Origin: Phycisphaerales bacterium
GTDB lineage: Bacteria; Planctomycetota; Phycisphaerae; Phycisphaerales; UBA1924
Direction: 5' to 3'
DNA: 64,000 nt
Assembly (NCBI GenBank): GCA_038225655.1
Contig: JBBRQY010000003.1
Coordinates: forward strand, 265,323 to 329,322
The notes beneath the pieces were generated by a model. That model had not been told where the DNA came from. It was given only the letters and a program-made list of their open reading frames with translations, and did not search any database. Of this stretch, positions 8,341 to 59,692 are shown one piece after another (position 1 is the stretch's first letter; the number at the start of each line of letters is the position of its first letter). The position numbers and the translations under genes are program-made.

Positions 8341-10143
8341 CTACTTGCCCTCGCCCTCCACCTGCGCCATGCGGGCGATCTCGCCGGGAGTCGTCGTGCC
8401 CTTCAGAATCTTCAACCTGCCGTCCGAAACCAGCGGGCGCATGCCGTTGGCCAGCGCCGCCTTGCGGATATGCTCGATCGGCGCCAGGTCGAACGCCATC
8501 TCGCGGATCTCGGAGTTCATTGACATCATCTCGAAGATCGCCTGCCGACCTCGATACCCCGTCCGCCCGCAGTTGGCGCACTCCTCGCCCCCCGCCTTCA
8601 CGCCCATCGCCTTGAGCACCTTGCCCCGCGACTCTTCCATCGTCATGCCGCAAAGCTGCAGGTACTTCGGGTCAGGCGCATCATCGATCGCCTTGCATTC
8701 TTTGCACAGCACGCGGATCAGCCGCTGCGCCATGATCGCCTGGATCGAGCTCGCCACGAGGAAGGGCTTGATCCCCATGTCGATCAAACGGGTGATCGCG
8801 CTGGGCGCGTCGTTCGTGTGGAGCGTCGAGAAAACCAGGTGCCCCGTCAGCGCGGCCTGAATGGCAATTTCGCCAACCTCACGGTCGCGGATTTCGCCCA
8901 CCAGAATCACATTCGGCGCCTGACGCAGCATCGTGCGAAGAACTATGCTGAACGTCAGGCCAATCTTCTCGTTGATCTGCACCTGGTTGATCCCCTCGAA
9001 GTTGTATTCGATGGGATCCTCGGCCGTAATGATCTTTTTATCCGGCCGATTCAGCACATCCAGCGCGGAATACAGCGTCGTCGTCTTCCCCGAACCGGTC
9101 GGCCCCGTCACCAGGAAAATCCCGTTTGGCCGCCGGATGATCCGGTTGAAGATCGCCAGATTGTCCTCTTCAAAGCCCAGATTCACCAGACCGATCTTCA
9201 CCGAGTCCGGCCGCAAAATACGCAGAACGACGCTCTCGCCGTGATACGCCGGACACGCCGATACGCGGAAGTCCACTTGCGTCTCGTCCACGCCGATCTT
9301 GATGCGTCCGTCCTGCGGCACGCGCTTCTCGGCAATGTTCATCCCCGCCATCAGCTTCATGCGGCTGAGAACGGAGTTCTGCATTCGTTTCGGCAGATTG
9401 TCGCGCTCGATGCATACACCGTCGATCCGGTACCGCAATCGCACGCGATCCGCCATCGGCTCGATATGAATGTCGCTCGCCCGCATCTTGCACGCCTCGA
9501 CCAGCATGCGCGAACACAGCTTCACGATCGGCGCATCATCCGCCGCCTGGTCGATCGACTTGTCCACCGACCGATCCACCGATCGGTCCACCGACCGATC
9601 GATGCTCCGATCGATCGATTCGCTCACCAGCGACTGCCCCGCGCCCACCATCTTGATGTCCGCCGTCAGACTCGCCTGCGGCTTGCCGTTGGCCCCCGCC
9701 GCCGGCTGCCCGTTCAGTCGATTCTCGATGTACCACTTGATCTGGCTCTTCGGCGCAAGCCGCGGCTCCAACTCCGTGTTCAGCCGAAACCGCAGCAGAT
9801 CCTGCGTCTCAATGTCCGTCGGATCGTGGATGACCAGTTGCAGCCGCCCCCCCACCTTCGACAGCGGCAGCACCAGATGCTTCTTGATTAACTCCTCGGG
9901 AATGAGCTTGGCGTCGACCTTTCCGGCCATGCTCGCCGCGGCCAGATCGACGTACTCCATCCCGTGCTGGTGCGCCAGCGCCTTGGCAATCTGATCATCC
10001 TTGGCAAAGCCAAGCTCTACGAGCGTCTCCCCCACCCGCTTCCCGCTCGCCTTGCTCTTACCCAATGCCTCATCAAGCTGCGCTTGCGTCACAAGCCCCC
10101 AGCCGACCAGTACTTCACCGATTTTCTTGCGAGATCGAGCCAT
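8341..10143 (-). CDS. second GspE/PilB-family ATPase with N-terminal GspE_N domain and (S-I/V-D-R) repeat linker
   Basis: Start moved to ATG 10143 (MARSRKKIGEVLVGWGLVTQAQLDEAL). Walker A 'GPTGSGKTTTLYS'. CKEC...CANC zinc motif. Confidence 0.85.
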   Translation of the reverse strand: MARSRKKIGEVLVGWGLVTQAQLDEALGKSKASGKRVGETLVELGFAKDDQIAKALAHQHGMEYVDLAAASMAGKVDAKLIPEELIKKHLVLPLSKVGGRLQLVIHDPTDIETQDLLRFRLNTELEPRLAPKSQIKWYIENRLNGQPAAGANGKPQASLTADIKMVGAGQSLVSESIDRSIDRSVDRSVDRSVDKSIDQAADDAPIVKLCSRMLVEACKMRASDIHIEPMADRVRLRYRIDGVCIERDNLPKRMQNSVLSRMKLMAGMNIAEKRVPQDGRIKIGVDETQVDFRVSACPAYHGESVVLRILRPDSVKIGLVNLGFEEDNLAIFNRIIRRPNGIFLVTGPTGSGKTTTLYSALDVLNRPDKKIITAEDPIEYNFEGINQVQINEKIGLTFSIVLRTMLRQAPNVILVGEIRDREVGEIAIQAALTGHLVFSTLHTNDAPSAITRLIDMGIKPFLVASSIQAIMAQRLIRVLCKECKAIDDAPDPKYLQLCGMTMEESRGKVLKAMGVKAGGEECANCGRTGYRGRQAIFEMMSMNSEIREMAFDLAPIEHIRKAALANGMRPLVSDGRLKILKGTTTPGEIARMAQVEGEGK

Positions 10144-10332
10144 ATTTGTGAGTGCGTTCCAACTGAAGCCGGAGTAAAGCCGGCGGCATCCTACCAAATG
10201 GTCCACACGCCCCCACGGACATGCTGGAACTCGATCCTAGCCCCCCACATTCCTTTCCCCAACCTCCGACCCCCGACCCCTCACTCCCGAGACCATACGA
10301 TCAGGCTTCTTGCACCTCTCGCCCGAAAAACT

Positions 10333-15884: not shown

Positions 15885-15940
15885 TCGTCGTCGCACTCGC
15901 GCAACACTGTGGCCTGTGCCCTGCGCGCTGTGCCCTCCCT

Positions 15941-23221: not shown

Positions 23222-24220
23222 TCACTCCCCTTCATTCATCCCCTGCGTCATCGCTCCACCGATCGACCTCCGCGTCATTTGCGGCAGCGACGCCGGCAAG
23301 CCACCCGGCCAGAGCGATCGCACCCCTTCCCGCACAATCCGCAGCCCCCCCATCATCGCCAGCCCCAGCGACGGCCGCGGCTTCAACGCATTCCGCCGCA
23401 CCAGCAGCGCGGTTACATCATCGTTGAATACATCCCGCAGATCGTCCGCGGCCACATCCCCGCGCAACGCCGCGATCCGTGACAACAGTTCGCGCACGAA
23501 CGTCTCCGGCCGCGACGGGTCCCCCTCCGCGAGCACGCGCCGCAGCCCCTCGTGCCCCAGCAGCCGTCCATCCGCATCCGTCGCCTCGATCAGCGAATCC
23601 GTGTAGAACAACACCAGATCATCCGGCCGCAGATGCACGCTCGTCGCCGGATACATGGTCTCCTCGATAATCCCCAGCGGCAGATTCGTCGGCCCCGTAC
23701 CACCCTCCCCCGGCACGATCATCCCCCACTCTCCCCTCTTGGCATCAAAACGCATCGGCCGCGGATGCCCCGCGTTCGAGACCGCCAGTTCATCCGTCGG
23801 CGAGAAATACGTCGCCACCACCGCTGTGGCAAACAGCACCCCTGCGCCCGCGTTTTCCAGGCCCTCCTCCCCGATCACTCCAAACTCCCGGTTCACGCGC
23901 GCCACCAGATCGGCCTGATCGATCGAGTTCGTGTGCTTCCGCATGAGCCGCCGCAACGCATCGGCCGCCTTCGCCACCGGCGCGCCATGCCCCGAAACAT
24001 CCGCCACGATCAGCCGCGTGATCCGCCCCGTGGCGCAGTTCGTCACGTAATGGATGTCCCCCCCCGCTTCCCCCGAATCGTCCCCCGCCCGATACGGCAG
24101 CGAATACACCCAGGCATCCAGCCCCGGCATCACGACACCATTGTCAATGGCGCGATTGCCGCCCCATACCTCCATACAGGCCATGACGTGCTGCCCCGCC
24201 TCATTGCCTTGATGCCTCAT
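23222..24220 (-). CDS. PP2C/SpoIIE-family serine phosphatase
   Basis: 'GGDIHYV...LIVADVSGHGAPVAKAA...', 'LVLFYTDSLIEA' are typical SpoIIE/RsbU-type motifs. Confidence 0.8.
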   Translation of the reverse strand: MRHQGNEAGQHVMACMEVWGGNRAIDNGVVMPGLDAWVYSLPYRAGDDSGEAGGDIHYVTNCATGRITRLIVADVSGHGAPVAKAADALRRLMRKHTNSIDQADLVARVNREFGVIGEEGLENAGAGVLFATAVVATYFSPTDELAVSNAGHPRPMRFDAKRGEWGMIVPGEGGTGPTNLPLGIIEETMYPATSVHLRPDDLVLFYTDSLIEATDADGRLLGHEGLRRVLAEGDPSRPETFVRELLSRIAALRGDVAADDLRDVFNDDVTALLVRRNALKPRPSLGLAMMGGLRIVREGVRSLWPGGLPASLPQMTRRSIGGAMTQGMNEGE

Positions 24221-24236
24221 GCCTTGATGCCTTCCT

Positions 24237-24271
24237 CACATCCGACATACGACATCGCACATCCGACATTC
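24237..24271. repeat. degenerate heptamer array (SACATNN)x5, intergenic
   Basis: cacatcc gacatac gacatcg cacatcc gacattc. Near-copy of the array at 24631-24665. Confidence 0.8.
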
Positions 24272-24273
24272 CG

Positions 24274-25506
24274 CTACGCCAGCAGCACATCCAGCAACTC
24301 CGGCACCCCCTGCCCCCGCGTCGCCACAGTCTCGATCACCGGCCGCCGCCCCGCCACATCCCGCAGATCGCGCACCAACTCGTTCTCCCCCGGATGATCC
24401 GCCTTGTTGCAGACGAACACATCCGCGATCTCCAGAATCCCCGCCTTGTCCATCTGCACCGCATCGCCCATTCCCGGCGTCAGCACCACCGCCGTCCGAT
24501 CCACAAACGACCGAATCTTCGTCTCGTTCTGCCCCGCGCCAACGGTCTCAATAAACACAGTGTTGAACCCATGTGGGATGTGGGATGTGGGATGTGGGAC
24601 GTCCGCGCCAGATGTGCCTGACTTTGCCTTCACATCCGACATCCCACATCCGACATCCGACATTCCCCCTATCAGCTCCACAATCTCCGGCAGCGCGTGA
24701 TAATCCTCCCCGCTGATCGCGAGCGAGCGATAGAACACGCTCTGGTCCAGCGTGTTGAAGTCCACCCGCAGCCGATCCCCCAGCAGCGCGCCGCCTGTGA
24801 TCGGGCTCATGGGATCAAACGCCACAACGGCGCACCTTCCCATCTCGGGCTTCTCTTTCGCCCGCCGCGTGTACTCCCCCACCAACTGCGCCACCAGCGT
24901 GCTCTTGCCCGCCCCCGGCGATCCGGTAATTCCAATCACACGCGTCGGCCTCTTCCTCGCCGCACCATTCCGCATCGGCCGCCCCGCATGCATCAGCGAA
25001 ATGTCCCGCGCGAGCTGCGACTCGGCCGTCCCATTCTCCACCACCTGCCCGCGCGCCTTCGTCGCTCCGCGCACCGCCTCCACTATGTCAATCAGCCCCG
25101 TCGCCGTCGTGAAACACTTCGCCACGCCACCGGCGAGCAGCACCGCAATGTCCTCCTGCGGCAGAATCCCACCCATATACACCGGCATGTCCGGCCGACC
25201 CAACTCCCGCAGCGCCGTCACCAGCCGCGGCCCCAGCACCAAGTGCGAGTTGCTCATCATGCTCGCCGCGATCACATCGCAATCCTCATCCCGCGCCGAA
25301 ATCGCCAGCGACCGCGGCGTCTGCCACAGCCCCGAATAAATCACGTGCACCCCCGAATCCCGCAGAGCCCGCGCGATCACCTTTACACCCCGGTCATGCC
25401 CATCCAGCCCCATCTTCCCCAGCAACACCCGCGGCCGATGATCCAGATCCGCGCAGCGGTCCTTCTTCTCAAACTCGGTCGTCGCGGTGTGCAGTGTGGT
25501 GGTCAT
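24274..25506 (-). CDS. fusion of a methylmalonyl-CoA-mutase-type B12-binding domain with a MeaB/ArgK G-protein chaperone
   Basis: N-terminal: 'RVLLGKMGLDGHDRGVKVIARALRDSGVHVIYSG'. C-terminal: P-loop 'GITGSPGAGKSTLV', 'IETVGAGQ', 'NKAD'. Start placed at ATG 25506. Confidence 0.8.
   Translation of the reverse strand: MTTTLHTATTEFEKKDRCADLDHRPRVLLGKMGLDGHDRGVKVIARALRDSGVHVIYSGLWQTPRSLAISARDEDCDVIAASMMSNSHLVLGPRLVTALRELGRPDMPVYMGGILPQEDIAVLLAGGVAKCFTTATGLIDIVEAVRGATKARGQVVENGTAESQLARDISLMHAGRPMRNGAARKRPTRVIGITGSPGAGKSTLVAQLVGEYTRRAKEKPEMGRCAVVAFDPMSPITGGALLGDRLRVDFNTLDQSVFYRSLAISGEDYHALPEIVELIGGMSDVGCGMSDVKAKSGTSGADVPHPTSHIPHGFNTVFIETVGAGQNETKIRSFVDRTAVVLTPGMGDAVQMDKAGILEIADVFVCNKADHPGENELVRDLRDVAGRRPVIETVATRGQGVPELLDVLLA
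24571..24665. repeat. inverted heptamer-repeat element inside the MeaB coding region
   Basis: (ATGTGGG)x4 at 24571-24598, a 32-nt spacer, then (SACATCC)x5 at 24631-24665. Read in-frame as 'MSDVGCGMSDVKAKSGTSGADVPHPTSHIPH'. Confidence 0.85.
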
Positions 25507-25600
25507 GGGGTTCGTGCGGAGGGTATGCGCGCACCGGGGTGGCACGGGCGGCTTGCCCGCCCGTGGTGTGGCAGCCGAACCCCCGGCGAGTCAGGCCTGC

Positions 25601-26551
25601 TCACCGTACCCGAAACTCCCACTCCACCCCCGGCGTGTACCCGATCGCCTTGTACAACTGCTCTCGGGTCTGCATCTCCCCGAGCGACCCCTGAACGCTC
25701 CCGTCTTTCTTGAGCGTCTCCAGCGCTCGCCCCACCGCCCCCATCGCAACCCGCAGCATGCTCACTGGGTAGATCACGCACTGATACCCCATCGCCCCGA
25801 ACTTCGCCGCCGGAATCAGCGGCGTCTTCCCGAACTCCGTCATGTTGGCGAGCAGATAGAACCGCCGCGACGCTCCCGCCGACTGCCGAAGGTCCGACGC
25901 AAACCGCCCGAACTCCTCTTCGGTCGTCAGCCCCTCCGGAAAGATCATGTCCGCCCCAACTTCCAAATACGCCCTCGCCCGCGCCACCGCCGCATCAAAC
26001 CCCTCCACCCCCCGCGCATCCGTCCTTGCACAAATGATGAACCCCCGGGCATCCTCGGTCTTCCCACATCCCACATCCCACATCCCACATCCCACATCTC
26101 TTGCCGCATTCACCGCCGCTCGCACCTTCTCCACCGCATGCTCCAGCGGCACCAGTTTCTTCCCATCCAGATGCCCGCACCGCTTGGGAAACACCTGATC
26201 CTCGATGTGCAGCCCCGCCGCCCCCGCCCGGGCATACTCGATCACCGTCCGTCGCACCATCTCGCTCTCGCCGAACCCGGTATCCGCATCCGCGATGATC
26301 GGCAGCCCGCTCGCGTCGAACGCCTCCCGGATGCAGCGGCAGAAGTGCTCAAGCGTCAGGATTCCCACATCCGGCACCCCCGCCGCCACACTGGTAACCG
26401 CGCCCGACACATACGTCGCATTGAACCCGGCATCCGCGATCATCTTCGCGCACAGCGCATTGAACGCCCCCGGCATCATCACCGTTTTTTCGGGTCCGGG
26501 GGGGTTGTCCAGCAAGGCGCGAAGGCGGGCACCGGGAGTTGCGTTCGGCAT
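25601..26551 (-). CDS. isocitrate lyase/PEP mutase superfamily enzyme, methylisocitrate-lyase-like
   Basis: 'MMPGAFNALCAKMIADAGFNATYVSG', 'ADADTGFG', 'IEDQVFPKRCGHLDGK', 'ICARTDA'. Start trimmed to ATG 26551. Confidence 0.8.
   Translation of the reverse strand: MPNATPGARLRALLDNPPGPEKTVMMPGAFNALCAKMIADAGFNATYVSGAVTSVAAGVPDVGILTLEHFCRCIREAFDASGLPIIADADTGFGESEMVRRTVIEYARAGAAGLHIEDQVFPKRCGHLDGKKLVPLEHAVEKVRAAVNAARDVGCGMWDVGCGKTEDARGFIICARTDARGVEGFDAAVARARAYLEVGADMIFPEGLTTEEEFGRFASDLRQSAGASRRFYLLANMTEFGKTPLIPAAKFGAMGYQCVIYPVSMLRVAMGAVGRALETLKKDGSVQGSLGEMQTREQLYKAIGYTPGVEWEFRVR
26063..26097. repeat. perfect heptanucleotide tandem repeat (CCCACAT)x5 inside a coding region
   Basis: Read directly from the sequence. 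On the coding (minus) strand it is (ATGTGGG)x5, encoding 'DVGCGMWDVGCG'. Confidence 0.95.
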
Positions 26552-26753
26552 AGTCCATGGTACCAACCCCCATGCCCCGACCAATTCCGGCCCATCCAGA
26601 CACCCCCCGAATTCCGCCCGCATCCCCCCTCCCCGCCCCTCTGCACTCCATCCACGCCTTTGTTATGCTGGGCCCGCCCCGACCCAGTGGGCCGGTCGAT
26701 CCGTCCCGTGACCGTCGCTCGTTGCGCACCCCACCCTCTCAGGAGATCCCTTC

Positions 26754-33713: not shown

Positions 33714-33785
33714 GCGGGCGTAGCTCAATGGTAGAGCATCAGTTTTCCAAACTGAATGTTGCGCGTTCGAGTCGCGTCGCCCGCT
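33714..33785 (+). tRNA. trnW: tRNA-Trp (anticodon CCA)
   Basis: GCGGGCG...CGCCCGC acceptor stem, 'TAGCTCAATGGTAGAGC' D-arm, anticodon loop TTCCAAA, 'GTTCGAGTC' T-arm. No encoded CCA. Confidence 0.9.
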
Positions 33786-33787
33786 TT
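33744..33787 (+). repeat. attL (44-bp direct repeat, 3' part of tRNA-Trp)
   Basis: tttccaaactgaatgttgcgcgttcgagtcgcgtcgcccgcttt, identical to 49926-49969. Confidence 0.9.
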
Positions 33788-33894
33788 GGATAAGTTGCCG
33801 GATCGCAAGGATTTGCGAGGCCTCCCGAGTGTTCGGGAGTGCGGCCAAACCAGCGTCCGCCGTGGTTCATACCACGGCGTGCAGGAGCCGCACT

Positions 33895-35178
33895 ATGTCC
33901 GCGCCCACAACTCCATCGCCCCGCCTCCCTCAGATGCTCGTGTACGCCCCCGCCGGCCGCGTCACGAAAGACGGCCAACCCTACCGCCGATTCCGTGTAC
34001 GCGTGAAGGGGCAAGACATTCCTCTGGGTCCGTGGGGTCCGGACGACTCGCCCGAGCATCAGCGAGCCACGATGAAGTACCGCGGCATCTGCGCCGACCT
34101 TCTGCGCCACGGGAAGGTATGCAGCAAGCCGGATGTGCTCACCGTCGGATCGCTCATCGACTTGTACCTCAACGAACTCGCGAGGCGGGACGCGGCGATT
34201 GATCCGCCTGGACGCAGCGAACCGAACGGCCGATCGATTCTCAAGAAACTTCGTGCTGGTTTCGCGCCGGAACGAGCCGCGGACTTTTCCGTGCCCAAAC
34301 TTGTGCATTGGCGCCTCGCCCTCGCCGAGACGGTCGATGATCGCGGAGTCCGGCTCAGCCGCGGCTATCTCAACAGCAAGGTGATCCCGACAATCGTGCG
34401 CATGTTCCGGTGGGCTCAGGACAAAGGACTCATCGAAGGCGAGCGATGGAAGGGCAATCCGAAGGACGTGGTTACGCCGCTCGCGAAGGGCGAGACTTCA
34501 GCGCCGAACCTCGAAGCAAGGGAGATGGCGGAGGGGATTGTCGTCGATCAGGTGCTTCCGCACCTACTCCCCTATGTCCGCGACGTGGTACAACTCATCC
34601 GTTTGACCGGGGCTCGCCCATCGGAAATCTGCCGACTCACCTGTGCGATGATCGACACTTCGCGGGCCGACGTGTGGGTCGTGGATTTGAAGCAGAACAA
34701 GAACGCCCACAGAGGGAAGATGCGAGTGATCACGTTCGACGCATCGGCGCAGGAGATTCTTTGCCGCCACAGGGATCCCCACCGCCCCTATGCCTGCATC
34801 TTCACGGGCGGACGACTCAAAGAGGCCAGCGTTCGAGCGAAACACGCCGGCCGGAACAGCACGCCGACGCCGGCACAGCTTGCGGCGATGGCGAAGGCCA
34901 CTGAGGATCGACTTGCCGACGCCAAACCGCTCGACCCGTCCACCGTTCAGGACCACGTGCGCCTTGCGTGCGTGGAGCACGGAATCGCACCGTGGACGCT
35001 GTACCAGCTCCGACATGCGGCCATCACCGAGGCGGACGACTTGGTAGACGAAGGCGTAGCGCAGGACGTTGCCGGGCATTCCTCCGCGGCGATGACCAAA
35101 AAGTACAAGCACAATCAGATCAACCGGGCCGTGAAGGCACGCCGCGCCGTCACCGCTGCGAAGGCCGCGGCTCACTGA
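33895..35178 (+). CDS. int: tyrosine-type site-specific integrase
   Basis: 'GARPSEICRL', 'LYQLRHAAIT', 'GHSSAAMTKKYKH' (R...H-x-x-R...H...Y). Start placed at ATG 33895. Confidence 0.9.
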   Translation: MSAPTTPSPRLPQMLVYAPAGRVTKDGQPYRRFRVRVKGQDIPLGPWGPDDSPEHQRATMKYRGICADLLRHGKVCSKPDVLTVGSLIDLYLNELARRDAAIDPPGRSEPNGRSILKKLRAGFAPERAADFSVPKLVHWRLALAETVDDRGVRLSRGYLNSKVIPTIVRMFRWAQDKGLIEGERWKGNPKDVVTPLAKGETSAPNLEAREMAEGIVVDQVLPHLLPYVRDVVQLIRLTGARPSEICRLTCAMIDTSRADVWVVDLKQNKNAHRGKMRVITFDASAQEILCRHRDPHRPYACIFTGGRLKEASVRAKHAGRNSTPTPAQLAAMAKATEDRLADAKPLDPSTVQDHVRLACVEHGIAPWTLYQLRHAAITEADDLVDEGVAQDVAGHSSAAMTKKYKHNQINRAVKARRAVTAAKAAAH

Positions 35179-35333
35179 GACGCATTGCAAACCACAACTC
35201 TACACAATATAACATTGCGATTGGCCATCATGGACACTCAAGGACAGTCATTGACAATCACGGCCGAAAATGATGTGTTTTGGTGTGACTTGGTTGGGTT
35301 CGGTGTCGCGGATTGTCGCCATTTGACCCCATC

Positions 35334-35362
35334 TTGACTTATGTCTGGCATAGGGGCACAAT
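35334..35362 (+). promoter_or_regulatory. sigma-70-like promoter candidate TTGACT-17-CACAAT
   Basis: TTGACT at 35334-35339 and CACAAT at 35357-35362, within a visibly AT-richer intergenic stretch. Confidence 0.3.
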
Positions 35363-35402
35363 GGGACGTACTGGCGTCACCCAAAACACAAAGGAACCCA
35401 TT

Positions 35403-35714
35403 ATGCCGCTATCGCCAGCGTCCAAGCCCCCCGCAATCACACTCGAAACCCTCCGCGAAACGCGGCTCACGTTCAAGGCTGCCGCGAAACTCGCGGGCGT
35501 GGATCAGACATCCGTTTGGCGATGGGCCATGACCGGCCTCCGCGGCGTCAAGCTGCCGACCATCCACATCGGCAGGGGGCACTTCGTCACCGAGCCTGCC
35601 CTTCTCGACTTCCTCAACAAGATCAACGACAAGGGGCCCGCCGACGTGTCCCACCTTGTCGAAGCCCGTCAAGAAGCCCGTAAGCCCCGCCGATCGCGAC
35701 GCCGCGCGGCCTGA
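35403..35714 (+). CDS. small HTH DNA-binding protein (DUF1580-like)
   Basis: 'LTFKAAAKLAGVDQTSVWRWAMTGLRGVKLPTIHIGRGHFVTEPALLDFL'. Confidence 0.6.
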   Translation: MPLSPASKPPAITLETLRETRLTFKAAAKLAGVDQTSVWRWAMTGLRGVKLPTIHIGRGHFVTEPALLDFLNKINDKGPADVSHLVEARQEARKPRRSRRRAA

Positions 35715-35738
35715 TTCAGTTCGATCCCGATTTGATCT

Positions 35739-36188
35739 GTGAATGCTCGGGCTGCCGCATCACCAACGGCCCGGGCAGAAGTTGTCCCTCACATGAAACC
35801 TATCCGGTCGGACAAGGAACGTCCAGCCCCGGCCACGAATCCCTTGGCCCAGTGGCTCCGCGCCCAGGCCGCGGCGTTCGTCGCGCAGGCGGAAGCGATC
35901 GAGCGAGGCCATCAGAGCGAGACGATCACATGCCCCGGGCTGGATCGGATGGACGTGGCGATTCTTCGCGTGCTCGCCGCGCACCCTTTGCATCGTGTTC
36001 TCGCTGCCGATCTATCCGACGGTGGGCATCGCGACATCGGCCGTCCAAAGGCCGTGGGCATCCGCCTCCGTCAACTCCACAACAGCGGCTTTGTCGATTT
36101 CCCCGTCGGTAGCCATCGCGGCGCCCTCATCACCGGCCGGGGACTTGCTGCCGTGCGTGCAGATGACGTGCAAGTGACGCTCAAATGA
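35739..36188 (+). CDS. hypothetical winged-helix-like protein
   Basis: 'MDVAILRVLAAHPLHRVLAADL...GIRLRQLHNSGFVDF' is MarR/wHTH-like. The start may instead be at 35793 (MKPIRSD). Confidence 0.5.
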   Translation: MNARAAASPTARAEVVPHMKPIRSDKERPAPATNPLAQWLRAQAAAFVAQAEAIERGHQSETITCPGLDRMDVAILRVLAAHPLHRVLAADLSDGGHRDIGRPKAVGIRLRQLHNSGFVDFPVGSHRGALITGRGLAAVRADDVQVTLK

Positions 36189-36224
36189 CCGCTTCGCCAA
36201 AACCGCCCGGAGGATACTTCCCAC

Positions 36225-36776
36225 ATGTCCGAGCCACAACGACTTTTCAACGTCCGGCAACTCTCCCGACATCTCAGCGTGTCTCAAAAGTGGCTGCGAC
36301 TAGAGGTGGAGGAGAATCGACTCCCCTGCATTCGCATCCGCAAGAATGAAATGCTGTTCGACGCCGAGACAGTCGAAACGATTCTGGCTGAGCGAGCAAA
36401 GCTCGGCGATGGCCGTGTCGTCACGAACTACTTCACGCCAGCGGTTCCGGCGAGGCACGTTGGAGGCGTGCATCGGAAGGCGATTCAGCTCTTCGGGGAT
36501 CTGCTGGCTGTGACTTGGGATTGCAACCACCCCGCGCGAGCCGAGTCGGTGCGTGCCCTGCTCTCCGAAATCGGGATCGATGTGAACGTCACGATGTCTG
36601 GCGAGCTTTCCCAAAAGACGCTTGAATGGCTCGTTGCTCAGTGCCCCGCGTGGCCGGTCGATGCCCAATGGGCACCACCGTCGAGAACTCCGCGCCCCAC
36701 GCAGGAAGCGATAGACGCGGCCGCTCCCCTCAACGGAAAGGACTCCGATGCCCCGTCGTCCCCAATCGCATATTGA
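36225..36776 (+). CDS. HTH (excisionase/MerR-like) domain protein
   Basis: 'LFNVRQLSRHLSVSQKWLRLEVEENRLPCIRIRKNEMLFDAETVETIL'. Confidence 0.6.
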   Translation: MSEPQRLFNVRQLSRHLSVSQKWLRLEVEENRLPCIRIRKNEMLFDAETVETILAERAKLGDGRVVTNYFTPAVPARHVGGVHRKAIQLFGDLLAVTWDCNHPARAESVRALLSEIGIDVNVTMSGELSQKTLEWLVAQCPAWPVDAQWAPPSRTPRPTQEAIDAAAPLNGKDSDAPSSPIAY

Positions 36777-36999
36777 CCACCACGCCGCGGCCCGATGGCT
36801 GTGCGGCGGACCCGTGCGTGATATGCCGCTCGCGCAGCGGCTCATTCGTCACTTCGTGGCGACCGGCCACTGGCGCGAAGTCAGCCGGGATGGCGTCGTT
36901 GGCTTCGACCTCGCGGACCTGAATGCGTGGCTCGTGTGGTGGCACTCGCCATCGTCGGACCTGGCACAGCCGCCGTTCGCGTCTCGGAGGGCGGCATGA
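36748..36999 (+). CDS. hypothetical small protein
   Basis: ORF track 83 aa. Its TGA overlaps the next gene's ATG (ATGA at 36996-36999). Start uncertain. Confidence 0.4.
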   Translation: MPRRPQSHIDHHAAARWLCGGPVRDMPLAQRLIRHFVATGHWREVSRDGVVGFDLADLNAWLVWWHSPSSDLAQPPFASRRAA

Positions 37000-37916
37000 A
37001 GATCAACATTGCACTGATCCGGACCGATGGCCAGACGCAGCCGCGCGAGCGGTTGGATACGAATGTGGTCAGCGACTACGCCGAGATGCTCGACGCGCTC
37101 CCGCCGGTGACGGTCTTTCGCGAAGGGAACAATTACTGGCTGGCCGACGGCTTCCATCGACACGCCGCGCACGTCAAGGCAAAACTCGAACAGATAAGTG
37201 CCGACGTTCGGAACGGCACTGTTGACGATGCCCGTCTGTTCGCCGCTGGAGCCAATGCCGCCCACGGGCTTCGTCGAACGATCGCGGACAAGCGGCGCGC
37301 CGTGCGGATCGTCCTATGGCACCCGTTGGCCGAAGACTGGTCTGACCGCCAAATTGCGACTCACTGCGGGGTGTCTCACACGTTCGTTGCGCGGTCGCGG
37401 CTTGATCTCAATGGCGCAGTTGTGGCCCGCTCCGACACAAAGCCGAACCCGGAACCCGCGACCCTTCCCACCGATGCCGTGGCCGATCCGAGCTCGGGCC
37501 CGCCGGAGCGTCCAACCGCAAAGACCGAGTTGCCGAAAGGCCTGGACCCCGATGTAGCGATGAAGCTGCTTGCTGCGATCGCGCAGTCGGACGTGCTGCG
37601 ACGGCTCAAACTTGATCTGGACGCGATCGCGCGCCGAGTCGAACAGTGCAGAGAGAACACGGCAGCTCGCCAGTTTCCATTTCAGCAATTTGTGAGACCC
37701 TTCCGCGAGGTGACGCTCTATGTCTGGAACGCGGAGCCGTTCTGCACATGTCCTGAGCCCCACGCGGGCCAACCCGGATGCCGCCTTTGTGCTTCCACGG
37801 GTTGGCTCACTCGCGGCGCGTTCCACAACTCCGCAATTCCGAAAGACCACAAGCAAGCGTGCTGGTTCTTCCGCGACGGCGATTGGTTGACCGCTGAGCA
37901 AGCGGGAGAGCTGTGA
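36996..37916 (+). CDS. ParB-like N-terminal (ParB/Srx nuclease-like) domain protein with C-terminal Cys cluster
   Basis: 'MKINIALIRTDGQTQPRE...VTVFREGNNYWLADGFHRHAAH' is ParB N-terminal domain-like. C-terminus 'CTCPEPHAGQPGCRLCASTGW'. Confidence 0.7.
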   Translation: MKINIALIRTDGQTQPRERLDTNVVSDYAEMLDALPPVTVFREGNNYWLADGFHRHAAHVKAKLEQISADVRNGTVDDARLFAAGANAAHGLRRTIADKRRAVRIVLWHPLAEDWSDRQIATHCGVSHTFVARSRLDLNGAVVARSDTKPNPEPATLPTDAVADPSSGPPERPTAKTELPKGLDPDVAMKLLAAIAQSDVLRRLKLDLDAIARRVEQCRENTAARQFPFQQFVRPFREVTLYVWNAEPFCTCPEPHAGQPGCRLCASTGWLTRGAFHNSAIPKDHKQACWFFRDGDWLTAEQAGEL

Positions 37917-38527
37917 CGGCCGCCAAGCTCAACACGTCATGGCCGACGAATCTCCCCGCGGACGCTCAGGCGCTCTGGGAGAGTATCGTCGGCCTCGTGC
38001 TCGAGCAGCCCCAGCCGGACGAACGCTGGCGGCTGGTGGTCCTTGGCCTGGCTCGTGGAGTGAAGTTCTCACACTTCACCCGCGACTTCACGCAGCCCCA
38101 ACTAGACACGCTCGCCCGGTTCGCCTTTGACACGATCGACTATCTTCGCCGCGGACACGAGCGCGACGAGACGGTGGCGGCATTTCGCACGGCCCACGAA
38201 CGGGCAAAATTCCCGCTGCCGGGTTTCTTTGCGACCATCGCGTTTTCGCAGGCACGAACGGCGCCACTTCCTTCCGCCGCGAAGCGATACGAGGATGATT
38301 CGCTCCGCATGCTCGTGGCCGGGTGCCACGAGCTGCAGCGCATGGCCGGGGATAGCCCGTTCGTCCTCACGTGCCGGGATGCCGGCCGAGAGATCGGACG
38401 TCACCACGAGACCGCGCATGACTATCTCAAGATGCTGGTCCGCGACGGCGTTCTGGAGAAGGTTTTTGCGGGCAAAGCCGGATCAGGCTGGGGCTGCGCG
38501 GCTAAGTTTCGATTCGTCACTGTCTAA
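37913..38527 (+). CDS. hypothetical protein with C-terminal wHTH-like segment
   Basis: ORF track 204 aa, GTGA overlap with the previous gene. 'HETAHDYLKMLVRDGVLEKV'. Confidence 0.5.
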   Translation: MTAAKLNTSWPTNLPADAQALWESIVGLVLEQPQPDERWRLVVLGLARGVKFSHFTRDFTQPQLDTLARFAFDTIDYLRRGHERDETVAAFRTAHERAKFPLPGFFATIAFSQARTAPLPSAAKRYEDDSLRMLVAGCHELQRMAGDSPFVLTCRDAGREIGRHHETAHDYLKMLVRDGVLEKVFAGKAGSGWGCAAKFRFVTV

Positions 38528-38578
38528 CCTTCGCACCCCGCTCCGGAACATGCAACACCCACAGCAGAGGTATAGACC

Positions 38579-38899
38579 ATGAACGAGGAACAGCAGGCCA
38601 AGGTGAACGTGTGGCTCGCCAAGATGCAGGAAGTCGGCGGCACTGAATACCAGACCTATCGGCAGGCGATGGACTCTCTGTATGCAGAGCTCGATGAGGT
38701 AGTGTTGAACGAGGTGGTCCGCCTCAACGATCTGCAACTGCAGAAGGCGATTTTGACATGGAGCGGCCCACTGAGAGCATCGCTTTGCTCAAGCGGATTC
38801 AACAGGACGGGGACCATGCTCGACGAGTGGCGAGAGGTCGCGGCAAGCCGCCTTCTTCAACCTGACCGGCGCCAGCTCGGCACGTATTCGGGTGCGTGA
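38579..38899 (+). CDS. hypothetical protein (3' half doubtful)
   Basis: ORF track 106 aa. The first ~60 aa look protein-like. The tail overlaps the convergent gene 38857-39267. Confidence 0.35.
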   Translation: MNEEQQAKVNVWLAKMQEVGGTEYQTYRQAMDSLYAELDEVVLNEVVRLNDLQLQKAILTWSGPLRASLCSSGFNRTGTMLDEWREVAASRLLQPDRRQLGTYSGA

Positions 38900-39267
38900 A
38901 TGACGTGCTGATCGATGTACTGAAGCACGCTGGGCAACAGGAATAGCTTGGTGCCTCGTCGCACTCGGAAGCCGCAAAGTCCGTCGGCGCGGAGCTTGGC
39001 GATCTCGGTGCTGATCTGCGATTCGGCGCACTCGACCCGAAGAAACTCCAGCACTTCGCGGCTCGTCATCACGAACGGAGCGGGCCGACCGGACGGCATC
39101 CAATAGGCCTCGCGGACAGTGACGCCTCCCACGGGAACCTGGACGGGTTTGGTGGCGTCGCCGATGCGCTCGGCAAGTCTGGCCGGCTCGTTGCGTCCGC
39201 CGCCGGATCTGCGTTGGTACGGCACCTGTGGCGTAAGCGGTGACGGCTGGGGCTTGTCGTTCATCAT
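38857..39267 (-). CDS. HTH (excisionase-like) DNA-binding protein
   Basis: 'MTSREVLEFLRVECAESQISTEIAKLRADGLCGFRVRRGTKLFLLPSVLQYI'. Start at MMNDK. Confidence 0.5.
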   Translation of the reverse strand: MMNDKPQPSPLTPQVPYQRRSGGGRNEPARLAERIGDATKPVQVPVGGVTVREAYWMPSGRPAPFVMTSREVLEFLRVECAESQISTEIAKLRADGLCGFRVRRGTKLFLLPSVLQYIDQHVIHAPEYVPSWRRSG

Positions 39268-39374
39268 CCCAATATACACGCGCGTGTGTGTAGGTTTGTG
39301 CTGGTTTGTAAACGTCTGTCAATGACACGCTTGCAGTCCGGTCGTTCGCAAATGAGTCGCCGTAGACTGACCAC

Positions 39375-39500
39375 ATGAACCCCGCGCGCTGGATGATCGC
39401 GTATCGCGCCGTCGTCGTGGCCCTGCTCGCCGCCATCGCCCTGGGCGTATTGATGCTCGTGGCCAAAGTCTGCCACGGAACCCTTGACGTTTGGCGGTAG
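39375..39500 (+). CDS. 41-aa single-pass hydrophobic peptide (not in ORF track)
   Basis: Manual translation: MNPARWMIAYRAVVVALLAAIALGVLMLVAKVCHGTLDVWR*. Third codon positions are strongly G/C, as in the real genes here. Confidence 0.4.
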   Translation: MNPARWMIAYRAVVVALLAAIALGVLMLVAKVCHGTLDVWR

Positions 39501-39521
39501 CGAGGCCGACGGCGGAGGGGT

Positions 39522-39740
39522 CTATTTCGATCGTCGCCGGGTCTTCTTGTGGCCGCGGCCGACCGTGATGCCGGCCGCGAGCGCCGAGACCTCGGAAACG
39601 TCTACCAAAGTGGCCTGAAGGTTTCGCACCATCACCGTCTGCGATCGCTTCAGCCGATCCGTCGCGAGCCACCGCGCCACCGTCGCCCGGTCGATGCCCA
39701 CCTTTGACGCCGCATCCCGCATGGTCATCATGTCGCCCAT
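39522..39740 (-). CDS. small HTH repressor/Cro-like protein
   Basis: 'MRDAASKVGIDRATVARWLATDRLKRS'. Transcribed divergently from the 39893 gene. Confidence 0.7.
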   Translation of the reverse strand: MGDMMTMRDAASKVGIDRATVARWLATDRLKRSQTVMVRNLQATLVDVSEVSALAAGITVGRGHKKTRRRSK

Positions 39741-39747
39741 ATGGGGG

Positions 39748-39817: not shown

Positions 39818-39892
39818 TTCCGATAGCAAGGGACCGCCGCGAGTGACGTTACCACTCGGACGGCCCCGCGAAACTGCATCGAAAGGAACTCC

Positions 39893-45301: not shown

Positions 45302-45307
45302 CCGCCC

Positions 45308-55801: not shown

Positions 55802-56005
55802 GTCAACAGTCTACCGCGCCGCGATGAGCCGGTTCCTTCTGTATTCTTTCTGGGTGGATGGGTGCGGGAAGGCGGGCGGGCCGCCTTCCTGCATCCGCGA
55901 ACCAACCCCATCGCGCTCGCGGCCCCATTCCCCTCCGCGAACCCCTGCGTAGCCCCCCGCGCACCTCTGCGTGCCCTCCTCCGCCTTCACCTCCCACATC
56001 CCACA

Positions 56006-58036
56006 TCACCCCCGCCCAAACCGCTTCTCCAACTCCCTGATCGTCAACCGAATGCTCGTCGGCCTCCCATGCGGGCAACTCGCCGACCGCTCCACCATCT
56101 CGCGCAGCTTCAGCAAATCCCCCAGTTCCGTGTCGCTCATCCGATCCCCCGCTTTCACCGCGGCTTTGCACGCCATCATGTCGAGCACCTCGGAGAGAGT
56201 CTGCTCGCTCGCCGGCGCGAACCCCTCCGCTTCCGCCCGCTCGAAGAGTTCCGCGATGAACTCCCCGGGATCGACGCCGCGCTCGAAGAGAAACGACGGG
56301 AACGCCTGCACCCCCACCGCCTCCGGCGAGAGCAACTCCGCCTGAATCCCGATCTTCTCCAGAATCGGCCGCAGTTCTTCCAGCTTCATCGCCGCCGAGC
56401 GCGGCACGCGCACCTGCGCTGGCACCAGCATCGCCTGCGACTCCAAGGGCCGCCCCTCGGCCCCCTCACTCCCCACGATCCTCGCCATCAACACCTCAAA
56501 CATCACCCGCTCGTGCAGCGCATGCTGATCCACGATCAACAACCCCTGCTCATCCTGCGTCACCACGAACGAGTTGTGGACCTGTAGCAGACGGTCTTTG
56601 GGTTCGGGAAGGGGGATTCGGGTTTCGGGTGAATGCAGTGATGCATCGGATGTCGAACCAATCGCCTCACCCCCGGCCACGCCACCCGCACTCGCTTCCC
56701 CTCCAGAATCCGAAACCCGATCCCCGAGACCTGATTCCATGAACCCCGGCGCGACGCGCTCGATTGCTTCCCGCACCTGCTGGTACTCAAACCGATTCTG
56801 CACCCGCTCAGGAATCGCCCGCTTGAAGAAATCAACGAACGACCGCGAGCCACCGCGATCTCCCGCCGATGGCTCGGTTCCCCCGCTCCCAGCCCCAAAC
56901 ATCTCTCCCCCCCAACGTCCTTGCTCCTGCACACGCGGCGTCAAATCCGCTCCCTGCAAGGCCCCCTTTACCGCCCGCAGCACCGTCTGGTGCACCATCG
57001 ACTGATCCCGGAACCGCACCTCCGTCTTCGCCGGGTGCACGTTCACATCCACCGCGCCAGGATCCATCTCGATCATCAGCACCGCCGTCGGATACCGCCC
57101 CGGCTCGATCAGCCCGCGATACGCCTCGCGCAGCGCGTGCTGGATCGTCTTATCCCGGATCGGCCTTCCGTTCAGGAACACATGCTGTGCCTTCGCCGTC
57201 GCCCGCGCGATCCCCGGCATCCCGATGAGGCCCCACAGCGTCATCCCGCGCGCATCATCAAACCGATCCGCGCTCACTTCCAGCATCTCGTCGGCCAGCT
57301 CCGTCCCCAGCACCGCCAGCGCGCGATCCCTGGGTCCCTGCCCCGGCGGCACATCCAGAACCCGCTTCCCATCGGTCGCCACCACAAACCCCACGCTCGG
57401 GTGCGCGATCGCCAGCGTACACGCCGCATCCACGCAGTGCCCCTGCTCGGTCGTCGCCGTCCGCAAGAACTTCCGCCGCGCCGGCGTATTCCAAAACAGA
57501 TTCCGCACCGTCACACACGTCCCAACCGGCCCCGCCGCCGGCCGCACCGGCCGCACCTCGTCCCCCTCCACCTCAATCACAAACGCCCCTTCGCTTCCCG
57601 CCTTCTCCTTCCCACCGCCCACTCCCGACTGCCCACTCCCTCTTTCCCGACTTCGTATCCCCAACCTCGACACACTCGCAATCGAAGCGATCGCCTCCCC
57701 TCGAAATCCCATCGTCCCGATCCGGTCCAGATCCTCAGGCGTGCTGATCTTGCTCGTCGCATGCGGCGAGATCGCCAGTCCCAACTCCCCCTCCGGTATC
57801 CCCCCTCCATCATCCGTCACCCGCACGAGTTCAATTCCCCCCTGCTCGATCTCCACCGAAATCGCCGTGGCCCCTGCATCAAGCGCGTTTTCCACCAATT
57901 CCTTCACCACGCTCGCCGGCCGCTCCACCACCTCCCCCGCCGCAATCTGGTTCACCAGCAGCGGCGGCAGTTTCTTGATTGGCTTGCGGGAATTGACAAC
58001 AACTTCGGCCATGTCGCTCATTCTAGGAAACCGCAC
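56006..58036 (-). CDS. mutL: DNA mismatch repair protein MutL
   Basis: 'LVNQIAAGEVVERPASVVKELVENALDAGA' (GHKL ATPase). C-terminus 'CPHGRPT'. The start may be a few codons internal. Confidence 0.9.
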   Translation of the reverse strand: MRFPRMSDMAEVVVNSRKPIKKLPPLLVNQIAAGEVVERPASVVKELVENALDAGATAISVEIEQGGIELVRVTDDGGGIPEGELGLAISPHATSKISTPEDLDRIGTMGFRGEAIASIASVSRLGIRSRERGSGQSGVGGGKEKAGSEGAFVIEVEGDEVRPVRPAAGPVGTCVTVRNLFWNTPARRKFLRTATTEQGHCVDAACTLAIAHPSVGFVVATDGKRVLDVPPGQGPRDRALAVLGTELADEMLEVSADRFDDARGMTLWGLIGMPGIARATAKAQHVFLNGRPIRDKTIQHALREAYRGLIEPGRYPTAVLMIEMDPGAVDVNVHPAKTEVRFRDQSMVHQTVLRAVKGALQGADLTPRVQEQGRWGGEMFGAGSGGTEPSAGDRGGSRSFVDFFKRAIPERVQNRFEYQQVREAIERVAPGFMESGLGDRVSDSGGEASAGGVAGGEAIGSTSDASLHSPETRIPLPEPKDRLLQVHNSFVVTQDEQGLLIVDQHALHERVMFEVLMARIVGSEGAEGRPLESQAMLVPAQVRVPRSAAMKLEELRPILEKIGIQAELLSPEAVGVQAFPSFLFERGVDPGEFIAELFERAEAEGFAPASEQTLSEVLDMMACKAAVKAGDRMSDTELGDLLKLREMVERSASCPHGRPTSIRLTIRELEKRFGRG

Positions 58037-58201: not shown

Positions 58202-58618
58202 ATGCCCACCCACACGATCTTCGACAAAATCCTCTCCGGCCAGATCCCCTGCCACAAGGTCTACGAGGACGCCCACATCCTCGCCTTCCTCGACATCAAC
58301 CCCCTTAGCCCCGGTCACACGCTTGTCATCCCAAAGGAAGCGAAGCCGACGCTCGACCAACTCTCCGACGAGTCGGCCGCCGCCATCGGGCGCGTGCTCC
58401 CACGCCTCTGCCGAGCCGTGATGAAGACCACAGGCGCGGCCGAGTACAATGTGCTTCAGAACAACGGGCCGAGCGCCAACCAGGTCGTGATGCACGTCCA
58501 CTTCCACATCATCCCCAAACTCCCCGACGGCCGCGGCTTAAACATCGGCTGGAAATCCCAACCCTTCGATCATGCTGCCGGCGCCACCCTCGCCAAATCA
58601 ATCGCCACTTGCCTCTGA
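58202..58618 (+). CDS. HIT-family (HinT-like) nucleotide hydrolase
   Basis: 'IFDKILSGQIPCHKVYEDAHILAFLDINP', histidine triad 'HVHFHIIP'. The track ORF from 56921 is over-extended. Confidence 0.85.
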   Translation: MPTHTIFDKILSGQIPCHKVYEDAHILAFLDINPLSPGHTLVIPKEAKPTLDQLSDESAAAIGRVLPRLCRAVMKTTGAAEYNVLQNNGPSANQVVMHVHFHIIPKLPDGRGLNIGWKSQPFDHAAGATLAKSIATCL

Positions 58619-59692
58619 CGACTCCTCAACCCGCTCCGGCGGCAGCGTGTTCTGTACATCCATCGAAAAGTCGAGGGACACCGCGTGGTGCGTCAGCCCC
58701 CCAACGCTGATTCGCTCCACACCCGTCTCTGCAATCCCCCGAATCGTCTCCAGCGTCACGCCCCCCGACGCCTCCAGCAGCACGCTGGATTTGTGCCGCG
58801 CCCGCATCGCTACGGCCTTCCGCAAATCCGCGACGCTCATGTTGTCCAGCAGCACGATGTCCACGCCCCCCTGCGTCCCCGGCGCACACACTCCCGCGGC
58901 CAGCAACAAATCCAGTTGCTCCAGCGACGTCACCTCCAACTCTACAAACCGCAACTCCTCCCCGGATATCTCCGCAGTCCGCCGCGCCTTGTCCACCGCC
59001 GCCGTCACCCATGCCGGCAACTCGCGCACCGTTACTCCAAAGATGTGATTGTCCTTGAACAACACCGCATCATGCAGCCCCACGCGATTGCAGTATCCGC
59101 CGCCGCACCGCACCGCATACTTTTCCAGCGCCCGCCACCCCGGCGTCGTCTTCCGCGTATCCAGCAGCCGCGCCCCCGTCCCCTCGATCGCCTTCACGAA
59201 CGCCGCCGTCCGAGTGGCGATCCCCGACATCCGGCCCAGGAGGTTCAGCATCGTTCGCTCGGCCCGCAGCACCTGATACATCGGTCCCGACAGCACCGCA
59301 ACCGTCTGCCCCGCGCGAATCCGATCCCCATCCTGCGCCCGGTACGCCACCTGGCACTCGTGCCCGAACACCATCATCGTCTGCGCCAGCGTGGCAACTC
59401 CGCTGAGCACCCCGGCCTCCCGCGCCACCATTAATCCATCCGCCCATCGCGTCGGCGGAATACAGCACTGCGTCGTCACATCTCCCGGCCGCGCCCCGGG
59501 CCCCAAGTCCTCCTCCCCCGCAATCGCCAATAGCTTGGTGAACGAATCGTTCACCTGCAGGGTGCGGAAGAGTTCCTCCAACGGCAATTGATTGATGTCT
59601 TGCACGGGCAATGCTATCTGGTAACCACATGGCACATGGCTACAGAGCACTTTCAAGCCAGGAGAGATTGCGTTGATGTGCCTTGTCGCCAT
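58598..59692 (-). CDS. nadC: nicotinate-nucleotide pyrophosphorylase (quinolinate phosphoribosyltransferase)
   Basis: 'LLDTRKTTPGWRALEKYAVRCGGG.NRVGL.DAVLFKDNHI', 'VLLDNM', 'LEASGGVT'. The N-terminus is probably shorter than the ORF. The 3' end overlaps the convergent HIT gene by 21 nt. Confidence 0.85.
   Translation of the reverse strand: MATRHINAISPGLKVLCSHVPCGYQIALPVQDINQLPLEELFRTLQVNDSFTKLLAIAGEEDLGPGARPGDVTTQCCIPPTRWADGLMVAREAGVLSGVATLAQTMMVFGHECQVAYRAQDGDRIRAGQTVAVLSGPMYQVLRAERTMLNLLGRMSGIATRTAAFVKAIEGTGARLLDTRKTTPGWRALEKYAVRCGGGYCNRVGLHDAVLFKDNHIFGVTVRELPAWVTAAVDKARRTAEISGEELRFVELEVTSLEQLDLLLAAGVCAPGTQGGVDIVLLDNMSVADLRKAVAMRARHKSSVLLEASGGVTLETIRGIAETGVERISVGGLTHHAVSLDFSMDVQNTLPPERVEESSEASGD

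Follow-up and report, generated by a model that had tools for sequence, protein, structure and literature searches.

We analysed a stretch of 64,000 nucleotides from a Phycisphaerales bacterium (GenBank assembly GCA_038225655.1, contig JBBRQY010000003.1, positions 265,323 to 329,322; hereafter the window), in which a hairpin built of heptanucleotide repeats lies inside a gene with a MeaB-type G-domain. The gene and the repeats in and next to it are as follows, with the arms of the hairpin named in the orientation of the gene.

24274..25506, minus strand: host gene, a fusion of a B12-binding domain with a MeaB-type G-domain according to Pfam, alignment and structure comparison; the mechanically called open reading frame (ORF) reaches 25545
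24631..24665, minus strand: 5′ arm of the hairpin, ATGTCGG ATGTCGG ATGTGGG ATGTCGG followed by ATGTGAA; encodes MSDVGCGMSDVK
24599..24630, minus strand: spacer or loop of the hairpin, unlike the spacers of other copies; encodes roughly AKSGTSGADV
24571..24598, minus strand: 3′ arm, four CCCACAT units, all perfect; encodes PHPTSHIPH
24236..24272, minus strand: intergenic copy of the 5′ arm, 37 nt, direct, 89% identical to 24630-24666 (repeat search)
24571-24599: (ATGTGGG)x4 array, period 7, 4.1 copies, 100% matches (Tandem Repeats Finder)
24632-24663: (SACATCC) array, period 7, 4.6 copies, 92% matches (Tandem Repeats Finder)
24238-24269: degenerate heptamer array, 4.6 copies, 76% matches (Tandem Repeats Finder)

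The whole element is a 95-base hairpin (24571-24665). A preliminary description of this DNA had placed heptamer repeats here, forming an imperfect inverted repeat that is read through in frame upstream of the IETVGAGQ motif, with a near-copy of the right arm 3′ of the gene, and all of this was borne out. Tandem Repeats Finder returned the three arrays listed above, the repeat search found 32-nt arms (24571-24602 and 24632-24663) that are 88% complementary with 29 nt between them, and the ORF at 24274..25545 on the minus strand translates the element as MSDVGCGMSDVKAKSGTSGADVPHPTSHIPH, directly 5′ of IETVGAGQ. Since the stop codon of the gene occupies 24274-24276, the intergenic near-copy begins 1 nt beyond it; the spacer between the MeaB gene and the downstream SpoIIE-like gene measures 53 nt in the window, compared to 9 nt in a relative without the insert (L003). 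The mRNA strand of the element folds at -55.9 kcal/mol (z -5.22, equalled by none of 200 shuffles); for the plus strand, folded as DNA, the value is -28.5 kcal/mol (z -4.37). Of the four heptamer units in the stem, three contain a C-C mismatch; one arm consists mostly of ATGTCGG while the other is the complement of ATGTGGG. As the arms thus differ at the S position in three of four units, the CCCACAT arm is unlikely to be a fold-back copy of the other arm. The G-rich strand of the 3′ arm, (ATGTGGG)x4, is the plus strand and so the template strand. A known RNA family was also considered for the element and rejected: in Rfam the hairpin gave only sub-threshold matches, to eukaryotic miRNA precursor hairpins, and only a tRNA elsewhere passed the thresholds.

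The true start codon of the host gene is probably M14 of the called ORF (base 25506), because homologues begin at MTTTLHT. The ORF matched PF03308 (MeaB, 6e-43) and PF02310 (B12-binding, 5e-18), with the B12 domain first, and it has the P-loop GSPGAGKST, ETVGAGQ and NKAD motifs of MeaB/IcmF G-domains, which are invariant in the alignment described below. In a Foldseek search with the AlphaFold2 model, the top matches were to the N-terminal half of IcmF (E 3e-19), and MeaB structures came lower in the list. The host protein has the B12-binding domain and the MeaB G-domain alone, and none of the ORFs called in the window was recognised as a gene for a mutase substrate-binding (TIM-barrel) subunit. 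The closest homologues bearing source-database names belong to Phycisphaerales or Planctomycetota. The gene is flanked downstream by a SpoIIE/PP2C-type phosphatase gene, and upstream by a gene for a PEP-mutase/methylisocitrate-lyase-like enzyme (hereafter PrpB-like) and a citrate synthase gene.

An alignment with 25 homologues, 75-95% identical, showed that most of them lack the segment, in agreement with the preliminary description. ELIGG on one side and F..(F/V)ETVGAGQ on the other do not vary, and about 5 residues separate them in most of the 25 homologues. Shorter versions of the window insert were found in two proteins (P0001 and P0002), and unrelated inserts occupy the identical loop position in four others (P0050, P0066, P0073 and P0119). 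The encoded 31 residues were modelled by AlphaFold2 as a disordered loop, in answer to the question of whether the insert is a surface loop: residues 298-323 have pLDDT below 50 and form coil between helix 279-293 and strand 329-332, and this strand leads into the Walker-B/switch-II motif ETVGAGQ. By the architecture of P-loop NTPases, the start of the strand presumably lies on the face opposite the nucleotide. Alignment with PDB sequences likewise located the insert between two aligned blocks. The preliminary description had named the opposite possibility, an ancestral and conserved MeaB-subfamily segment with no repeat structure; it failed on the alignment, where the insertion is lineage-specific. 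As judged from these comparisons, the element is a lineage-specific in-frame insertion with a nucleotide repeat structure and not an ancestral part of the protein.

The age of the insertion can be estimated from its relatives at the same locus, which read as follows in the orientation of the gene.

Window: ATGTCGG ATGTCGG ATGTGGG ATGTCGG + ATGTGAAGGC, a 27-nt spacer, (CCCACAT)x4
L001: identical first arm + ATGTGAAGGC, then an unrelated 37 nt
L002: decayed arm ATGTTGG ATGGGGG ATGTGGG ATGCCGG + ATGTGAAGGC, then GGGA
L003: no insert

Thus (ATGTSGG)4 + ATGTGAAGGC is common to the window, L001 and L002 in the same register, and the insert was otherwise unseen among the relatives compared. The same arm was found at the same codon in two independent assemblies, NCBI GCA_038238455.1 and a JGI metagenome. 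Because it is present in all three lineages, the first arm predates their split, and it has since kept its unit number and frame while decaying by point mutation. The CCCACAT arm is absent from both L001 and L002, and was either gained later in the lineage of the window or lost twice. The 37-nt tail of L001 was considered as a decayed second arm, but its alignment gave no convincing similarity. Since the two closest relatives hold the 5′ arm only, what is conserved at this locus is not the complete hairpin. When metagenomes were scanned for the MeaB flank common to the window, L001 and L002, no further insert-bearing relatives came to light. Comparisons of filled and empty sites showed no target-site duplication; instead, a few original bases were replaced.

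The loop has also received other DNA. Three Phycisphaerales orthologues carry inserts that are unrelated to that of the window and lie in exactly the same loop, each of them in frame (coordinates are those of the orthologues):

L224, 501-1730: 81 nt, direct heptamer arrays (GCACAGG)5(GGTCAGG)4
L225, 501-1757: 117-nt near-perfect palindrome, -74.8 kcal/mol, z -6.6
L226, 501-1739: 102 nt with a long stem, -46.4 kcal/mol

With three other lineages bearing unrelated inserts, the MeaB loop is, by this comparison, hypervariable. The linker between the B12 and G-domains is a second hypervariable site. In L001 (1248-2528) it carries an 81-nt in-frame insert made of two ~27-nt direct repeats with a small palindrome in each, and P0015, P0044 and P0108 have other inserts there. 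Because the loop was hit independently several times and the linker was hit in L001, the simplest reading is that the protein offers very few insertion-tolerant places, and that selection keeps only insertions landing there.

The MeaB hairpin is not the only heptamer repeat in the window. ATGTSGG-type arrays of period 7 occur at five sites (24238, 24571, 24632, 26062 and 55988), and two SACATCC units in tandem, with at most one mismatch, gave 16 matches against 0.22 expected, a number reached by none of 100 dinucleotide shuffles. Two of the five sites, 26062-26099 and 55988-56008, had not been mentioned in the preliminary description:

26062..26099, minus strand: second in-frame copy, (ATGTGGG)x5.3, 100% perfect, in the PrpB-like gene (25601..26623, minus strand)
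55988..56008, minus strand: short copy, 2.9 units + GGTGAAGGC, overlapping the stop codon of mutL (56006..58036, minus strand)

The insert of the PrpB-like gene reads RDVGCGMWDVGCGKTEDAR where L003 has KSCH, a net gain of 15 amino acids. This insert, too, is old, for L001 has a longer and decayed form of it at the same position. Sense and G-rich strand coincide at both intergenic sites, at the PrpB-like site and in the first MeaB arm. Several other repeats were observed in the window. A hairpin of a different unit (59626-59706; CACATGG x2, a ~36-nt spacer and inverted CCATGTG units) lies between a quinolinate phosphoribosyltransferase gene (58598..59692, minus strand) and an enoyl-ACP-reductase-like gene (starting at 59588, plus strand), and short tandem arrays lie at 10257-10280, (CCCCGAC)x3.4, and 15907-15936, (CTGTGCC)x4.3. 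An 8-mer/15-mer repeat at 24198-24233, TGCCTTGA, overlaps the start of the SpoIIE-like gene, to whose N-terminus it adds ~5 residues relative to L003. The gap between the PrpB-like and MeaB genes is 55 nt in the window (25546-25600), about 590 nt with a 98-aa ORF in L001 (660-1247) and about 5 kb with five genes in L003 (4852-10000); this structural variation falls between two repeat-bearing genes.

In order to see how widely such arrays occur, we considered genome contigs with three ATGTSGG units. The scan gave at least 120 loci, compared to about 2 expected at random by our own estimate. Among the matches listed, about 30 loci were from Phycisphaerae/Planctomycetota and the rest mostly from Bacteroidota, with some from Gemmatimonadota, Verrucomicrobiota, Acidobacteriota and Gammaproteobacteria, and several of the related 8-kb loci hold extra independent arrays. 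The Bacteroidota arrays are mixed with the related units ATTTCGG, AAGTCGG and ATTGCGG. We rejected the idea that ATGTSGG is a heptamer specially favoured among bacteria, as viral contigs held 9 loci of it against 27, 24 and 14 for three permuted heptamers; permuted heptamers form arrays there just as often, which points to a general simple-sequence-repeat process. Arrays of ATGTCGG/ATGTGGG with up to 16 or more units stand at contig ends in several phyla (L017, L019, L020, L044, L064, L107, L109 and L116), including in the cultured isolates Gilvimarinus gilvus and Thalassolituus marinus, and long heptamer arrays evidently break short-read assemblies.

Many hairpins in Planctomycetota share the design of the window hairpin, with a G-rich arm, a 15-45-nt spacer and a C-rich arm, and their spacers are unrelated between copies, even between two hairpins of one genome. 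Of 135 G-rich arrays, 16 had a C-rich partner within 90 nt downstream (convergent) and none had one upstream (divergent). Since randomly placed arrays would be convergent and divergent equally often, hairpins clearly arise as units and not from two arrays that happened to meet. A metagenome scan added 25 taxonomically unassigned hairpins, almost all of them intergenic and typically located between a stop codon and the next start codon. Four was the commonest unit number among Planctomycetota arrays and hairpin arms, in a sample that required at least three perfect units.

As its sequence shows directly, the heptamer is free of stop codons in all six frames, and therefore any copy whose total length is divisible by three is read through. 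As the period is 7, every frame gives one cyclic peptide, MSDVGC(G/R) from one strand and HPTSDI(P/R) from the other, and the stereotyped peptides MSDVGCG... and HPTSDIP... recur in many unrelated proteins. When a synthetic 48-aa repeat peptide was used to search a protein database for in-frame copies, 17 candidates were returned, none of them informative. By hand curation, 11 of 39 Planctomycetota arrays or hairpins lie in frame inside proteins, including about 6 of 11 hairpins. The following hosts carry them inside a single Pfam match or between parts of one protein:

L008: aldehyde dehydrogenase (Aldedh)
L063: NAD synthase (NAD_synthase)
L065: GT87 glycosyltransferase
L081: GH15 glycosidase
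L120 (578-3571): Ser/Thr protein kinase (Pkinase), with an in-frame hairpin between the HRDLKPSN catalytic-loop and DFG motifs; a kinase-TPR protein of a Phycisphaeraceae metagenome-assembled genome
L101: between two CCG domains
L053: FtsW C-terminal tail
L112: prepilin leader
L083: GT2-type glycosyltransferase (probable)

Among the remaining Planctomycetota copies, at least 8 are no more than 10 nt away from a stop codon, and several lie just 5′ of start codons. Across the family the G-rich strand tends to be sense in stop-adjacent copies and antisense in copies upstream of starts.

The arrays thus belong to a known class of heptanucleotide repeat, with an outcome for proteins resembling that of Rickettsia palindromic elements (RPEs). 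Heptamer arrays, inverted pairs and stop-adjacent placement are already known from Xanthomonas and Nostoc, and intragenic heptamers from Geobacter. The closest match is to the dispersed GGGNATC and GGGGAYT repeats that Rehm et al. (2015, PMC4692102) described in Xanthomonas and Nostoc. In these, four units are commonest, 70 of 186 repeats form convergent pairs, sense-strand copies lie close behind stops and antisense-strand copies upstream of ORFs, and 7-11% overlap ORFs at least partly; they form G-quadruplexes in vitro and have been assigned no function. Like them, the present repeats are tandem 7-nt units with a G-tract, dispersed beyond chance, intragenic in a minority of cases in hosts without a common function, frequently arranged in convergent inverted pairs able to form stem-loops, and placed at stops and starts with the same strand bias. 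They differ in the heptamer itself, of which ATGTGGG units have GGG but ATGTCGG units only GG, in their occurrence in Planctomycetota, order Phycisphaerales, and in the share found in frame inside proteins, 28% in a biased sample compared to the reported 7-11% that overlap ORFs at least partly.

The wide spread of such arrays agrees with the finding that, in most of the bacteria whose genomes were surveyed, long simple-sequence repeats are most often heptanucleotides (Mrazek et al. 2007, summarised in PMC4679880). In Geobacter metallireducens, 49 loci have four tandem GGACCGG heptamers within and between genes (PMC2700814); these elements resemble ours in being multicopy, inter- and intragenic arrays of four heptamers, whereas their heptamer differs, and inverted pairs and in-frame read-through are not described in the cited passages. 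The TAACTGA repeats of Beggiatoaceae and cyanobacteria and the cyanobacterial STRR repeats are likewise dispersed heptamer arrays, mostly at gene boundaries with occasional read-through by ORFs (PMC4679880). However, TAACTGA has stop codons when read forwards, is found almost exclusively in direct repeats and lies mainly just 5′ of starts (PMC4679880), unlike the present heptamer, which lacks stop codons and is found in inverted pairs.

The preliminary description had proposed an analogy to RPEs, and as regards the outcome it stands. Palindromic repeats of about 100 nt occur in frame in unrelated metabolic genes and add a stereotyped peptide to a host that is apparently functional. It does not extend to the elements themselves, since RPEs are ~150-bp sequence families in which both the core and the encoded peptide are conserved (PMC10969869). 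In the present copies no core is shared, recurrence is confined to the heptamer arms, the spacers are unrelated, and a sequence relationship to RPEs is not apparent. The hosts are in addition free-living and GC-rich, and most copies are intergenic. The insertion is real, as had been claimed, but rather than a case of its own it is one copy of a dispersed and already described kind of heptanucleotide repeat.

Taking these results together, we consider it likely that the element is a fixed, in-frame copy of a dispersed heptanucleotide-repeat hairpin, sitting in a permissive, hypervariable surface loop of the MeaB fusion protein as a passenger peptide and turned over by slippage. The general form of the element is 5′-(ATGTSGG)~4, a variable spacer and (CCSACAT)~4-3′, and the loop it occupies joins a helix to the β-strand leading into the Walker-B/switch-II motif ETVGAGQ. 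The locus comparison shows an insertion that dates from before the three-lineage split and has been remodelled since, presumably by replication slippage and point mutation of the arrays. Most likely the element adds only a harmless passenger peptide, which would take no part in MeaB function. Intragenic copies would then be collateral, the survivors of purifying selection that had the right length and landed in tolerant loops.

Several points weigh against this interpretation. The scan of loci used one genome per species and required three perfect ATGTSGG units, which biases the sample, and the gene calls in the census were crude, being GC3-based with a Pfam check on 10 spanning ORFs from related loci. 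Longest-ORF calls over-counted intragenic copies, and five of these (L027, L040, L076b, L092 and L124) were regraded as 5′ of a start codon from translations and Pfam coordinates. The window has two 100% perfect arrays (28 nt and 37 nt), and the inserts that contain them arose before the window and L001 split, the flanking DNA being only 79-89% identical between the two; something must therefore keep these arrays uniform, either ongoing slippage or conversion or, less likely, selection. Three of the five copies in the window lie within 2 kb of each other, a clustering for which the interpretation does not account. Finally, the neutrality of the insert for the protein is something that we infer.

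The hairpin could instead be a non-autonomous mobile element of the REPIN type or a MITE (a miniature transposable element with inverted repeats), with the heptamer arms as terminal inverted repeats, moved by a transposase encoded elsewhere, e.g. a RAYT or an IS200/IS605-type Y1 enzyme acting on single-stranded hairpins; single arrays would be decayed half-elements. There are real likenesses to REP/REPIN (RAYT) and MITE sequences, which are short, dispersed, imperfect palindromes of about 100 nt with fixed polarity and single arms beside doublets (PMC3733652, PMC3184786, PMC10969869). The polarity of 16 convergent hairpins to 0 divergent would be expected, the ~95 nt of the element are near REPIN size, the copies in the window and its close relatives share the ends GGAATGTCGG... 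and ...GGATGTGA(A/G)G..GGC, and the single arm in L001 and L002 is what decayed singlets would show. We nevertheless regard a mobile element as unlikely. There is no conserved core or interior, as spacers are unrelated even within one genome, no GTAG/CGTC tag, and no target-site duplication in the filled and empty sites compared, where a few original bases were replaced; thus only the resemblance of the arms to terminal inverted repeats is left of what defines a MITE. The arms also differ in unit number and at the S position, many copies are intragenic, and permuted heptamers are equally frequent as arrays in viral contigs. The 41 ORFs called in the 64-kb window yielded no gene for a Y1/RAYT transposase or a reverse transcriptase; the sole recombinase there is a phage-type integrase beside a tRNA gene.

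It is also rather doubtful that the hairpin, or a G-quadruplex of its G-rich arm, is a functional cis-element whose intragenic position has been selected, acting on mRNA stability or processing, on transcription or translation pausing, or in separating the expression of two operon halves. The high stability of the hairpin (-55.9 kcal/mol, z -5.2) would fit such a role, as would the perfection of the window arrays despite the age of the inserts and the stop/start orientation bias of the family, the same bias being reported in PMC4692102. ViennaRNA also places a predicted G-quadruplex in the minimum-energy fold of the PrpB-like mRNA array. However, the closest relatives lack the second arm and the first arm of L002 has decayed, with the gene intact in both, and a C-C mismatch interrupts three of four heptamer units. 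The G-rich arm in the MeaB mRNA has one GGG run only, and a three-tetrad RNA quadruplex is therefore impossible there. Neither does any Rfam family match, and other lineages have unrelated inserts in the same loop.

The arrays are very improbable as contingency loci for phase variation, in which gain or loss of one 7-nt unit would switch MeaB and the PrpB-like enzyme off and on through a frameshift. A switch would fit a unit length indivisible by three, the arrays in two neighbouring genes of propionate/methylmalonyl metabolism, and the active slippage that perfect arrays imply. But frame-shifting copy-number polymorphism, the mark of a contingency repeat, was not seen on comparing the window with L001 and L002: three lineages whose proteins are 5-7% different each have four units with a partial one, in frame. 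Furthermore, the arrays are short (4-5 units), the hosts are housekeeping enzymes here and functionally unrelated elsewhere, mutL is present in the window, and phase variation was rejected for the analogous repeats in PMC4692102. That the feature is an assembly or sequencing artefact, such repeats being often at contig ends in metagenome-assembled genomes, or an ancestral conserved segment of a MeaB subfamily, is scarcely credible and refuted by the data above, since the two independent assemblies agree on arm and codon, the reading frame is maintained, and the segment is missing from most of the 25 aligned homologues.

As to how the hairpins arise, both a hairpin-specific transposase and a two-ended, heptamer-adding repair process would yield convergent pairs only. 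Of the latter kind would be a distinct insertion process in Phycisphaerales that may seed convergent heptamer hairpins and other palindromes at DNA breaks, a speculative idea to which we attach little weight. A candidate would be the telomere-like addition of G-rich heptamers to the two 3′ ends of a double-strand break, which are then joined. This would explain the 16:0 convergence, the unrelated filler spacers and the absent target-site duplications, as well as the replaced bases at insertion sites and the repeated colonisation of coding loops. If it is true, free-living bacteria would have undergone a wave of protein-coding palindromes like that of RPEs, driven by repair and not by a transposon.

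Other regions of the window were also inspected. The tRNA gene (33714-33785) is directly followed by the phage-type integrase (33829-35178, plus strand), Pfam recognised nothing in seven more called ORFs across some 13 kb (36.7-49.8 kb), including one of 1485 aa (45308-49765), and the GC3-based caller found few genes between 31.6 and 42.9 kb. The region around 33714-50000 is probably an integrated island or prophage. At 3794-10206 lies a type II secretion/type IV pilus cluster with one T2SS-F protein and three consecutive T2SS-E ATPases.

Our knowledge of MeaB function is unchanged by these results, and the element deserves attention mainly for the frequent in-frame copies in Phycisphaerales and the strict polarity of the hairpins. 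In practical terms, such inserts lengthen proteins, break metagenome assemblies and may mislead annotation. The strictly convergent topology limits the models that can be proposed for the origin of the repeats. What is best known from Rickettsia, namely repeats and palindromes that are repeatedly read through in conserved enzymes, is here documented in free-living, GC-rich Planctomycetota, where the hosts in the loci examined include MeaB, a methylisocitrate-lyase-like enzyme, aldehyde dehydrogenase, NAD synthetase, a GH15 glycosidase and a protein kinase. With at least 4 unrelated inserts taken up by a single MeaB loop, these insertions provide a natural map of the insertion-tolerant sites in such folds.

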